A model generated the notes under the pieces. It was not told the origin of the DNA. It searched no databases and saw only the letters and a program-made list of their open reading frames with translations. A program made the translations under genes and the position numbers. A stretch of 64,000 bases of DNA, from NCBI GenBank assembly GCA_951406725.2, contig OX597835.1, forward strand, positions 7,378,001 through 7,442,000, written 5' to 3'. Below are positions 19,433-61,119 of the stretch, in pieces. Source of the stretch: Octopus vulgaris. Its lineage: Eukaryota. Numbering within the stretch: position 1 is the stretch's first letter; the number at the start of each line of letters is the position of its first letter.

Positions 19433-19808
19433 TCACACACACACACACACCCACACTCACATACGCACGCACACATATATATTCATATATATGGATGTGT
19501 ATATAAGTATATATATATATATGTATATCTATATATATATATGTATATCTATAGACATATAAGTATATATATATATATATATATATATAACAATAATAAA
19601 TCTCTGAGCGAGATATAAACAGTAACTGCTCTATAACATAAGGGGGATCAGCCATCTGAATGTGGCTAGGGACAGGGCGGGGTGGTGGGGGTGTTACTGA
19701 TGCATTTAGCCCCAGGCGATCATCGACGTCACCAGAAGGGCCGACACCATCTCGGTGTCCTTGCCAGCCTGCAAAGGGAGATCAGCCTCCCGAAGATACG
19801 GATACTAC

Positions 19809-19849
19809 ATACGGACCGATTTCGAGGTATTTGCCTCTTATCAACGCAT
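19809..19849 (-). ncRNA. Type I hammerhead ribozyme, U3-A8 variant (inverted copy)
   Basis: atgcg-TTGATAA-gagg caaata cctc-GAAA-tcgg-TC-cgtat. Confidence 0.7.
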
Positions 19850-19954
19850 GGTAAGCACCGTTCTTCGTTGAGGGACCCCCTCTACAGGCTGGATATATAA
19901 GGATTTTCACAGTAACCACAGTCACTGATGTAGAAAAACCCAACGGTGCTTACC

Positions 19955-19995
19955 ATGCGTTGATAAGAGGCAAATACCTCGAAACCGGTCCGTAT
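19955..19995 (+). ncRNA. Type I hammerhead ribozyme, U3-A8 variant
   Basis: Stem I atgcg/cgtat, core TTGATAA, stem II gagg-caaata-cctc, GAAA, palindromic stem III accggt, predicted GUC cleavage after 19990. Confidence 0.78.
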
Positions 19996-20305
19996 GTAGT
20001 ATCCGTATCTTCGGGGAGGCTGATCTCCCTTTGCAGGCTGGCAAGGACACCGAGATGGTTTCGGCCCTTCTGGTGACGTCGATGATCGCCTGGGGCTAAA
20101 TGCATCAGTAACACCCCCACCACTCCGCCCTGTCCCTAGCCACATTCAGATGGCTGATCCCCCTTATGTTATAGAGCAGTTACTGTTTATATTGTTTTAT
20201 TATTGTTGTCGAACGGTTTTTCTACATCAGTGACTGTGGTTACTGTGAAAATCCTTATATATCCAGCCTGTAGAGGGAGTCCCTCAACGAAGAACGGTGC
20301 TTACC

Positions 20306-20346
20306 ATGCGTTGATAAGAGGCAAATACCTCGAAACCGGTCCGTAT
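20306..20346 (+). ncRNA. Type I hammerhead ribozyme, U3-A8 variant
   Basis: Identical to 19955-19995; nested in a long hairpin 20263-20392; predicted cleavage after 20341. Confidence 0.78.
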
Positions 20347-20549
20347 GTAGTATCCGTATCTTCGGGGAGGCTGATCTCCCTTTGCAGGCTGGCAAGGACA
20401 CCGAGATGGTGTCGGCCCTTCTGCTGACGTCGATGATCGCCTGGGGCTAAATGCATCAGTAACACCCCCACCACCCCGCCCTGTCCTTAGCCACATTCAG
20501 ATGGCTGATCCCCTTATGTTATATATATATCTATCTATCTATCTATCTA

Positions 20550-39856: not shown

Positions 39857-40038
39857 ATTTTTTTTTCTTTCCTAGTTTTCTCCGTATTTCTTTTCTGTGT
39901 ATCTTTCTGTTGAAGAGCGTAGGCTCGAAACGTAAAAAGACTTGTTTTATTTATATTCCTGAGCGCCATACTAATACAATTGTGTTTGTATTCCACCTGC
40001 CTTCGTCTTTTGTTTATTTTCATAAAGCCTCCCGTTAC
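39857..40038 (+). mobile_element. Penelope-like pLTR fragment with a variant hammerhead (copy 1)
   Basis: tcttt-CTGTTGA-a gagc gtag gctc-GAAA-cg-TA-aaaaga at 39902-39940; second copy at 48290-48470. Confidence 0.65.
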
Positions 40039-54518: not shown

Positions 54519-55314
54519 AAACCTTATTGTTTCCAGAATATTTCAAATTGTAAACGTAATTTACGAACACCTTGTATTCTAAGAGCTTACACGACCAACA
54601 AATTTAGACACACTCTAGCATCGGCTGAATAGCGACGAATACACTGAACCGATAAACTAGAGAATCTCTTTTTGCTTCGTGTTTCGTATTCTGTAAAAAC
54701 ACATTTCTTATTTCAGGTGAAAAATTTTGTTTCTGGCTAATTTTTGTAATATAAATTATAATGTAGTTACAAAGTCTAAATACTGCAGCTGCATCGAATG
54801 TTAGGAAAAGCTACAACTTTTATCTTAACGAATTAACAAGTTTTACATGAATCATTTGTAGTTAGCTGAGAAGAAATAGGTGTTATATCTATGTTTTTCA
54901 CAGACGAAAGTGTGTTTTGGTTTGTGTTTTAAGGTGGGGAAATGTTTATCTAATTCTTTATTGAAATATATAAAATACAAACATTTGTTTATGGATAAGG
55001 TCACGGTGTTATTGTGTTGTTTTATTTTATTTGTTCACTTAAGTAATTCGTTTATTCTTTCGAAGCATCTTGAAAATAATCCGATGTTCTGAGATTTTGA
55101 AATCAGGCTTTGCTACATTAAACTTTGAGTATCAGTTACCCACCACCTCTAAATATAAACTAGAGGTAAAAAAAAAACCTAGGTAAATTTTACATGTTTG
55201 TTTCTTTTTTATTTCATTGATCTGTCAAAGGCGAAGTAGAGGTGCATGGCCTAATGGTGATGATGTTGCACTTACAATCATGAGATCGTGTGTTCGATTC
55301 CAGGAGAGAGCGGA

Positions 55315-55848
55315 GCGTTTATTTGAGCATGACGAAGTGAAGGCGCATGACTGTATTTAGGCTGTTGAGTTCGCGATTGTAAGCTCGTGATTTCGATTCC
55401 TGGACTGAGCGGTGCACTGTTTTCTTAAGCAAAGCCCTCCGCTTCCCTTTGCCCGGTCCACTCAGAGGTAAATGGGTTCCAGTGATAGACAGGAAGTTAA
55501 TCCTGCATCGAAGAAGCATCCCGCGCAGTGGGGTTTGTGTTGTAACCTGAGTCACTTATAGGCCGTGGAGACAGGGTAAAGCGTTTATTTGAGCATGACG
55601 AAGTGAAGGCGCATGACTGTATTTAGGCTGTTGAGTTCGCGATTGTAAGCTCGTGATTTCGATTCCTGGACTGAGCGGTGCACTGTTTTCTTAAGCAAAG
55701 CCCTCCGCTTCCCTTTGCCCGGTCCACTCAGAGGTAAATGGGTTCCAGTGATAGACAGGAAGTTAACCCTGCATCGAAGAAGCATCCCGCGCAGTGGGGT
55801 TTGTGTTGTAACCTGAGTCACTTATAGGCCGTGGAGACAGGGTAAAGC
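55315..55848 (+). repeat. Near-perfect 266-bp tandem duplication (old tRNA-like SINE content)
   Basis: gcgtttatttgagcatgacg at 55315 and 55581; nearly identical translated ORFs. Confidence 0.95.
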
Positions 55849-55924: not shown

Positions 55925-56390
55925 GAGTCATGGCAAACCCAAGTCCAAGTAACATGGAAAAAGAGTTAAGCTCCGGTTTTATGATTCCTGGGAGTGATGA
56001 CAAACCTAAGTCTAAGTAATGTGGAAAAGGCGTTAAGCACTGGCCTTATGAGTTTGAGGAGTCAGGACAAACTCATTTCTAAGTAACATGGATACAGGGT
56101 TAAGCTCCGATTTTATGATTCCTGGGGATCATGACAAAACTAAGTCTACGTAATGTGGAAAAGGCGTTAAGCACCGGCCCTATGAGTTTGAGGAGTCATG
56201 ACAAACTCATTTCTAAGTAACATAGAAACAGGTTAAGCTCCGATTTTATGATTCCTGGGGATCATGACAAAACTAAGTCTAAGTAATGTGGAAAAGGCGT
56301 TAAGCACCGGCCTTATGAGTTTGAGGAGTCAGGACAAACTCATTTCTAAGTAACATGGATGCAGGGTTAAGCTCTCGCCGTATGAGTCAT
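55925..56390 (+). repeat. Tandem repeat: ~67-bp subunits organised as ~134-bp dimers
   Basis: atgattcctggg at 55981, 56115 and 56248, alternating with atgagtttgagg. Confidence 0.85.
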
Positions 56391-57383: not shown

Positions 57384-57720
57384 CTGGGAAGGGTGGGATT
57401 AATGTAAAGAGCTTAACTTAATTCCACAATTCGTAACAGATCTACAAATATTCATAGCTTCTCGGCGGCGCCAGAATATGATACCAGATTGATGTATCTA
57501 AAATATGATTAATGAAGAACTAATGGCCGTTCGTGAATCGTTTATGTAACTGCGACGATTTCTGGTGCTGTAACGCCTTGACCTATTGCGTGCAACAAAT
57601 GGAGCCCAGGCGGAGGTGTTGCGATGTCTCTAATAAAACTTTTGCTTGTTTGCTTGCCTTTTATTTTTGTGCTTCCCCTTGTTTCAGTCATTAAATTTTA
57701 CTGAAAATATATATATATAT

Positions 57721-57973
57721 AAGTTTACGAAGTCTAGACAAATATCTTCAGCTAGCAGGCCTTGCTACTCTAGACTGATGATGGGCAAAACCCTGAAACA
57801 TGCATGTATCTAGATGCAGGCCTAGCTGTTGGGGGTGTTTGTCTCCCCTTCGTAAATATATAAGGACACAGGAAATGTGTCAAGGCCTACAGGAAGCGTC
57901 GATGCTTCCTAGGGCTAAATGGCGGTGATGTAATTCCCTTACGGGACTGTCACGTTAAGTTGACAGTATACAA

Positions 57974-57976
<3 letters not shown>
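57721..57976 (+). mobile_element. Highly structured hammerhead-containing element (retrozyme/pLTR-like)
   Basis: Long hairpin 57724-57856 enclosing an HHR, followed by several hairpins; flanked by (TA)n and (CT)n(TA)n. Confidence 0.75.
57769..57814 (+). ncRNA. Canonical type I hammerhead ribozyme
   Basis: tctaga-CTGATGA-tggg caaaa ccct-GAAA-c atgcat g-TA-tctaga; palindromic stem III acatgcatgt; predicted GUA cleavage after 57808. Confidence 0.85.
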
Positions 57977-58053
<77 letters not shown>

Positions 58054-60139: not shown

Positions 60140-60900
60140 ACGAAAGGAAGGAGAGACGGAAGGTGGAAAGGAGGAGGTGGGGGTGGATGGACAGAAGGAA
60201 GGAGAGACGGAAGGTGGAAGGGAGGAGGTGGGGGTGGATGGACAGAAGGAAGGAGAGACGGAAGGTGGAAGGGAGGAGGTGGGGTGGATGGACAGAAGGA
60301 AGGAGAAACGGAAGGTGGAAGGGAGGAGGTGGGGTGGATGGATGGACAGAAGGAAGGAGAGACGGAAGGTGGAAGGGAGGAGGTGGGGTGGATGGACAGA
60401 AGGAAGGAGAGACGGAAGGTGGAAGGGAGGTGGGGTGGATGGACAGAAGGAAGGAGACGGAAGGTGGAAGGGAGGAGGTGGGGTGGATGGACAGAAGGAA
60501 GGAGAGACGGAAGGTGGAAGGGAGGAGGTGGGGTGGATGGACAGAAGGAAGGAGAGACGGAAGGTGGAAGGGAGGAGGTGGGGTGGATGGACAGAAGGAA
60601 GGAGAGACGGAAGGTGGAAGGGAGGAGGTGGGGGTGGATGGACAGAAGGAAGGAGAGACGGAAGGTGGAAGGGAAGGGGTGGGGTGGAAGGAAGAAAGGA
60701 AGGAGAGACGGAAGGTGGAAGGGAGGAGGTGGGGTGGATGGACAGAAAAAAGGAGAGACGGAAGGTGGAAGGGAGGAGGTGGGGGTGGATGGACAGGAGG
60801 AAGGAGAGACGGAAGGTGGAAGGGAGGAGGTGGGGTGGATGGACAGAAGGAAGGAGAGACGGAAGGTGGAAGGGAAGGGGTGGGGTGGAAGGAAGAACGG
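60140..60900. repeat. ~51-bp purine-rich minisatellite
   Basis: (gaaggaaggagagacggaaggtggaagggaggaggtggggtggatggaca)n, about 15 copies. Confidence 0.95.
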
Positions 60901-61119
60901 AGGGATTAAATGAAAGAAAACAAAAGAAACAAAAAAGGAATTTTTTTTTTTAAATAAAAGAATTTAATTGAATGAAAACAAGGATGAAATTATATTTTCA
61001 ACCTGGAAACAACAGCCGAAATGGAACAAAAACACATGGACTGTGAAGAAGAGAAAACAGCAATGAAATAAAATAATAAAACGAAATGTTATGAAATTAA
61101 CGAAATTGAAGAATCTAAT

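Follow-up and report, generated by a model that had tools for sequence, protein, structure and literature searches.

Penelope-type reverse transcriptases (RTs) are the closest retrotransposon relatives of telomerase. The only Penelope-like element (PLE) studied in vitro is Poseidon_Ac (PAc), in which reverse transcription starts at two internal sites 3´ of the hammerhead. The segment bounded by these starts constitutes the tail, nicking and extension take place on both strands, and the RNA that is required is located between the hammerhead and the second start (Frangieh et al. 2024, PMC11167929). In Penelope insertions, the tail is confined to one end (Craig et al. 2021, PMC8557442). Metazoan non-LTR retrozymes, for which cleavage and circles were shown by Cervera and de la Pena (2020, PMC7229834), were proposed there to use a PLE as helper, and retrozymes have also been proposed to be non-autonomous Penelope-like sequences themselves (Li, Clavereau, Pollet 2026, bioRxiv 10.64898/2026.07.22.740005).

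Here we analysed two hammerhead elements in a window of Octopus vulgaris DNA (the whole stretch of 64,000 nucleotides). By anatomy they are metazoan non-LTR retrozymes, a known class, with putative cleavage and circles. They share with the published retrozymes the non-coding tandem units (330–390 nt), the one canonical type I hammerhead and the thousands of copies, as well as a weak palindromic helix III, as in HHR_Amex1, and a U.U at the base of helix II, as in HHR_Amex2 (PMC7229834). The passages of that work describe neither a conserved fold 3´ of the hammerhead nor ends at two sites, nor any family from cephalopods, and in this the octopus elements differ. The Xenopus retrozymes are of the same class and co-occur with Neptune-type PLEs; they are however sisters of the pLTR by sequence (bioRxiv 10.64898/2026.07.22.740005), whereas the octopus units are unlike the sampled autonomous 3´ repeats beyond the core. 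The element class is already known. For the conserved fold that we report downstream of the octopus hammerhead we found no description in print; Repbase, Dfam, subscription journals and bioRxiv supplements may contain the families.

Two retrozymes with a common module

Element 1 consists of an inverted arm (19940–19588, minus strand) and 1.6 tandem units (19942–20523, plus strand). Its features are:

19588–20523, both arms: element 1, a single family A retrozyme insertion with flanking (TA)n tracts (self-BLAST and ends)
19588–19631, minus: the "tail", from end site 1 to end site 2 (putative RT start 2), outer end of the inverted arm
19703–19762, minus: module copy of the inverted arm, H2 intact
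19814–19844, minus: hammerhead copy of the inverted arm
19960–19990, plus: hammerhead copy of the first tandem unit (5´-truncated)
20043–20102, plus: module copy of the first tandem unit, with a mismatch in H1
20228–20245, plus: H0, a short hairpin 5´ of the rod, with an equivalent in every family aligned
20263–20392, plus: rod, a long hairpin tipped by the hammerhead (z −9.3)
20311–20341, plus: type I hammerhead core, U3-A8 variant, palindromic helix III
20394–20453, plus: module (H1 20397–20413, H2 20415–20449)
20457–20463, plus: 5´ arm of the long-range helix P3
20489–20506, plus: hairpin H4 (loop of 8 nt), some 15 nt 5´ of end site 1, conserved in families A–D
20513–20523, plus: 3´ end site 1 (putative RT start 1), abutting (TA)n

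The module copies at 20043–20102 (plus) and 19703–19762 (minus) were overlooked in the initial annotation and belong to the same tandem and inverted insertion. The core at 20311–20341 is composed of UUGAUAA, stem II GAGG/CCUC and GAAA C-CG-GUC, with the cut predicted after C20341. In the module at 20394 a private G>C at 20424 disrupts H2, and its folding z is only −1.55, against −3.26 for its inverted twin at 19703–19762. The 3´ arm of P3, GTTACTG, lies between both 3´-end sites and is present at 20179–20185 and in the inverted arm at 19620–19626. A splice-acceptor role for ctccctttgcag in element 1 was discarded, since the AG is absent from families B, C and D.

Element 2 is a single unit:

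57685–57980, plus: element 2, one family B retrozyme unit, terminating at site 1 before (CT)n(TA)n
57724–57856, plus: rod, a long hairpin tipped by the hammerhead (z −7.1)
57775–57808, plus: type I hammerhead core, with the triplet GUA here and GUC in most family copies
57862–57921, plus: module (H1 57865–57881, H2 57885–57917; z −4.8)
57923–57929, plus: 5´ arm of P3, whose pairing partner is the tail, absent from this copy
57947–57966, plus: hairpin H4

Its core is composed of CUGAUGA, a U.U-closed stem II and GAAA CAUGCAUG UA. Elsewhere in the window, 55314–55848, 55925–56388 and 60144–60905 hold a 266-bp duplication (99% identical), a 67/134-bp satellite and a purine-rich 50-bp satellite.

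The initial annotation had placed both hammerheads at the tip of a hairpin of about 130 nt, followed by a common downstream module, and this architecture was confirmed. The modules are identical in 43 of 61 alignment columns, with a score of 62 that none of 5000 shuffles reached (8.0 ± 5.9, maximum 39); the best unrelated place in the 64-kb window scored 37. Both fold into the hairpin H1 and a two-part hairpin H2. The rods are weakly alike (2/1000 shuffles), chiefly via the core. The reported difference between the cores, UUGAUAA and CUGAUGA, corresponds to the published covariation of U3-A8 for C3-G8, and the U3-A8 variant is common to PLEs and element 1 (PMC4209133). Among the sister subfamilies A1–A4, core positions 3 and 8 occur as CUGAUGA, UUGAUGA, UUGAUAA and CCGAUGA, a series of stepwise compensation via a U.G state. 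The hairpin centred on cgtcgatg is present in both elements, as annotated, but it is not universal: most copies of the element 1 subfamily have GTTGATG, and in families C and D a GGTG/GATG loop is present without cgtcgatg, so that its sharing by the two elements is partly luck.

Families in the octopus genome

The search covered a genome of 2.8 Gb (227 contigs), in which both elements occur as dispersed repeats with 1674 and 3028 first-look candidates, respectively, which are candidates and not copy numbers; the best copies are 91–98% identical (40 scored per element). The motif of the initial annotation has 3598 exact matches in the genome and its reversed control 0, and a skeleton pattern, which fits families B, C, D and E and excludes A, gave 12,231 matches compared with 36 for the control. 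Families C and D were met at Penelope-like loci, and a fifth family, E, was obtained from 2 loci.

Units are 355–362 nt long and can be aligned end to end across families; tandem periods are 359–362 nt in A1, A2, A3 and D, and units are 355–356 nt in C. Among the loci examined no clean tandem of family B was found, and in the scanned loci no ORF for an RT or an endonuclease could be assigned to the units. The hammerhead is of the canonical type I as defined in PMC4209133, with a helix I of 6 bp, a helix II of about 4 bp and a short palindromic helix III; its core is intact and covaries. Rfam 15 yielded no family match to either element (best E 0.9 and 0.17, unrelated families), and its hammerhead models failed to detect the cores of elements 1 and 2.

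Families A and B were found under three organism labels with near-identical DNA, and the module was seen under these labels alone. One metagenome scan with an A/B-specific pattern that is blind to distant relatives gave no match, and a comparison, equally blind to such relatives, revealed no look-alike windows in other genomes. The runs matching families A and B are contigs, none recorded as RNA; contig depth, which measures neither copies nor expression, peaks over the module and H4.

Seven of the first 30 loci picked with a hammerhead-core pattern have the module directly downstream, all of family B (the pattern excludes the cores of A, C and D, and about 15% of its matches are due to chance). 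Other hammerhead-like families lack it. One core family with a GAGCG/GCTC stem and pyrimidine-rich flanks has a degenerate copy without module at 39907–39935 of the window and is also present at loci L193, L201, L203, L204 and L208.

Trees of 28 copies (2 intended ones were left out) separate A, nested within C, from B, D and E in both halves of the unit, with split supports of 98/100 for the rod and hammerhead half and 100/98 for the module half; a tree of the module only does not resolve at depth. An exchanged cassette was rejected, since rod and module trees are congruent at the family level. The units are collinear and the half-trees agree, and the module was therefore inherited together with the ribozyme; because it descends with the hammerhead rod, it marks one clade and not the superfamily that the initial annotation had proposed.

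The module is a conserved RNA structure

The stems of the module covary across families, and the module is a real RNA structure under selection, preserved through compensating changes in at least five related families of this genome. In 16 subfamily copies H1 is paired in 96 of 96 cells, with double changes at 2 of 6 pairs. The inner stem of H2 retains 5–6 of 6 pairs in all 12 subfamily copies, with GC/AU/UG/CG swaps, and in its outer stem a C-G is replaced by U-A in family D; H2 was parsed by hand because MAFFT shifted it between families. The covariation is based on four to five related families and not on lineages independent of one another. At 30 loci picked with a pattern that leaves the stem positions free (some of them arms of one insertion), the H2 inner stem is paired in 29 (shuffles 21%) and H1 in 25 (shuffles 37%). 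Ten of these loci have an intact hammerhead core 96–108 nt upstream; the other 20 are truncated or inverted or have an altered core. Variants present in at least three haplotypes retain stem pairing in 13 of 16 cases and rare ones in 22 of 75 (p 1.7e-4), a within-family signal that may be inflated by CpG decay yielding U-G pairs.

A covariance model built from families A and B detected further homologues in families C and D, which were outside its training set. Family C was found with E values of 3e-12 to 0.3 and family D weakly (E 0.004–0.17; 6 matches in 5 of 19 loci, plus L067), with a copy in L089 missed. Within the window the model recovered the 4 known module copies and nothing else. A kink-turn and a rearranged hammerhead in the module were rejected, since the motifs that their consensus requires are not conserved.

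The compensatory changes indicate pairing of the RNA and thereby argue against the module being an internal promoter or DNA-level signal that drives the next tandem unit. By eye, there is also no family-wide match to the polymerase III B-box consensus. Newt satellite 2 has an snRNA-type promoter, and the RGCTA strand of the module is conserved in sequence. Retrozymes are strongly transcribed (PMC7229834) and need a promoter, but altogether we regard this role of the module as very improbable.

Between families, the module is 0.48–0.64 identical, the catalytic core 0.56–0.66 and the rods 0.30–0.51. These values bear on the suggestion that the module is not specifically recognised but common by descent and retained by a general selection for compact base-paired RNA. 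The whole units are homologous with congruent trees for the two halves, and the rods too retain pairing despite sequence drift, as would be expected. However, the module is nearly as constrained in sequence as the catalytic core and more so than the rods, and the features that are constant across families, namely the helix lengths, a 4–5 by 3 internal loop and the RGCUA strand, exceed what compaction needs. We therefore consider compaction by itself an improbable explanation.

A wider fold and two 3´ end sites

The module is the first part of a conserved fold of about 190 nt, which comprises H1, H2, P3, H4 and a tail hairpin. The order in the unit is H0, the hammerhead rod, H1, H2 and a domain closed by the 7-bp long-range helix P3 and enclosing H4 (8-nt loop), followed by the tail hairpin. 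The 5´ arm of P3 starts 5–7 nt after H2 and the 3´ arm lies between the two end sites. P3 and H4 show 93.9% pairing across 11 copies; 7 of the 12 base pairs have undergone double changes, and slid controls reach at most 55%; a within-family signal is absent for these helices (2/8 vs 16/48). The tail, with 0.45–0.80 identity between families, is conserved like the module. The whole unit including the rods is structurally conserved, and the module is not unique in this respect.

The 3´ ends of the genomic copies fall into two clusters. Of 54 rows of family A, 34 have a terminal end, in every case at one of two sites, about 70 and 112 nt 3´ of the module, and the other 20 rows continue into the next unit. 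The ends of families B, C and D cluster likewise at two sites, with some blurring by (TA)n in the references. Across families the sites lie about 60–75 and 100–125 nt 3´ of the module and about 40–60 nt apart. Where both ends of a two-armed insertion could be resolved (15 insertions), one end was always at the first site and the other at the second; 7 of 22 two-armed insertions were dropped because one "end" fell inside a continuing unit. These two fixed 3´ ends and the tail at one end are hallmarks of Penelope-type insertion. They are arranged as partial tandems with an inverted 5´-truncated arm at AT-rich or microsatellite targets ((TA)n), and PLE insertions likewise show partial tandems, an inverted 5´-truncated arm, the tail at one end and a microsatellite bias (PMC8557442, PMC4209133). 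The tail is about 40–60 nt long in the octopus retrozymes, which have no ORF, and 30–40 nt long in PLEs (PMC8557442, PMC4209133).

Since copies end at two fixed points further 3´, the module is not the priming site that the initial annotation had suggested. A priming site, or else a second ribozyme, is the reading that we consider the most improbable of all. For the ribozyme one might cite the GGCUAA, which resembles the J4/2 strand of HDV-like ribozymes, but no Rfam family was matched and the module has no conserved CUGA/GAAA core. Furthermore, a relaxed descriptor of the HDV-like nested double pseudoknot (run without positive control) matched neither strand of any of the 5 sequences searched.

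Several neighbouring sequences were observed at these loci. At L154:1461-2573, 119-bp units of family C2 that contain just the P3 domain and the tail together with some (TA)n, without hammerhead or module, are repeated in tandem, probably by local duplication following insertion. Next to copies of families B and C, a LINE-like ORF1 with a weak zf-CCHC match is present at L116:2477-3376 (minus), L052:2222-3022 (minus), L141:2409-3233 (minus) and L115. One and the same foreign A-rich 3´ end abuts the rod in L052, L115 and L116, 19–31 nt before the hammerhead core, which fits a LINE targeting these retrozymes. Near a family B insertion, L029:2170-3000 (minus) holds the 3´ terminus of the ORF of a LINE with restriction-like endonuclease (weak zf-RVT match).

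Search for an autonomous helper

The search for GIY-YIG domains yielded 150 scored matches of 6136 candidates, of which 30 loci and 10 longer stretches, mostly of one Neptune-like family, were scanned with a profile and the covariance model. The module was found in the own 3´ repeat of the autonomous element at 0 of these 40 GIY-YIG loci, and the co-occurrence with autonomous Penelope elements that the initial annotation had raised was thus not seen. The sole match, L104, is a family C insertion of its own, on the far side of a (TA)n tract. In the same sample (40 of 6136 candidates) no 3´ repeat resembles the units beyond the hammerhead core, so that no homology to an autonomous pLTR was found.

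Many loci (L101–L103) hold a young element with an intact ORF of 781 amino acids encoding RT and GIY-YIG, which we take to be Neptune-like from the linker zinc finger. With its UUGAUAA core, its (TA)n targets and a distance of 40 nt between its two ends it fits as helper; its region after the hammerhead is AT-rich, folds weakly and lacks the module. If it is the helper, its RT would not require the module-containing fold on its own RNA. Either the helper lies outside our sample, or the fold was invented by the retrozymes, for capturing the RT or for host factors. The hammerhead in L101–L103 has a very weak helix I, and the 3´ region contains, ahead of a TATA-like box, repeats of CCAAT-like and TGACGTC motifs. 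A TAGC/GCTA pair bracketing end site 1 of this element was discounted (4 bp, unsupported by subfamilies). No solved structure related to the Neptune-like ORF was found.

The absence of the module from the sampled autonomous elements, which need RT binding but perhaps no circle, would agree with a module that binds a host factor or shields the RNA (in ligation, stability, export or in keeping the hammerhead off in the circle) and makes no direct contact with the RT. The constant unit length of 355–362 nt points in the same direction, and it has been argued that circles of metazoan retrozymes must be blocked in vivo by means other than self-pairing (PMC7229834). On the other hand, the module lies directly against P3, which brackets the RT start sites, and we consider such a role unlikely, albeit conceivable.

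A possible docking surface for the reverse transcriptase

The module is 60–125 nt away from the start sites in sequence, and H4 is closer than the module to start site 1. P3, however, joins the module to the segment between the sites, and the fold would therefore place it beside both starts. Because of this position, and because the required RNA of PAc spans the region from the hammerhead to the second start, our best guess is that the module is part of a docking surface for the putative Penelope-type RT and endonuclease that copies the retrozymes, a proposal that we put just short of an even chance. Of the two ideas in the initial annotation, position thus favours the recognition site for a Penelope-type RT over the stability structure.

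The comparison with PAc, an element of the Poseidon clade from a lizard, supports the analogy in the two internal starts, the tail between them and the AT-rich target, and the equivalent of its required RNA stretch would be the module-containing 3´ domain of the octopus retrozymes (PMC11167929). In PAc, however, the element lies in the ORF, the starts are 85–92 nt after the cut in an AC-rich stem-loop, and the element was not defined by covariation (PMC11167929). In the octopus retrozymes start 1 is about 180 nt after the cut and the domain is non-coding with several helices.

In the proposed life cycle, tandem transcripts would self-cleave, probably as dimers because helix III is weak and palindromic, and the cleaved RNA may circularise. 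A Penelope-type protein would then bind the structured 3´ domain, nick AT-rich DNA and initiate reverse transcription at two internal sites, each serving one target strand. Copying would run backwards across the module and the hammerhead and, if the template is circular or multimeric, continue into the following unit. Going further, the fold of about 190 nt might be a scaffold that seats a dimeric Penelope-type RT on both starts, one per nicked strand, a platform like telomerase RNA that evolved by parasites out-competing the RNA of the helper; this extension is possible but on balance doubtful.

How Penelope-type RTs select their template and start internally is the question that these families address; in vitro, it has been narrowed to a region of 150 nt, for which no structure was given (PMC11167929). 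A fold that is defined by covariation and tied to two mapped start sites allows single helices to be broken and rescued. If the fold serves stability only, the finding would be a well-described new clade of a known element class. A docking role would also tell what a retrozyme needs beyond its ribozyme, and if the scaffold reading is true, the five natural families would define the minimal cis element for trans-mobilisation by PLEs.
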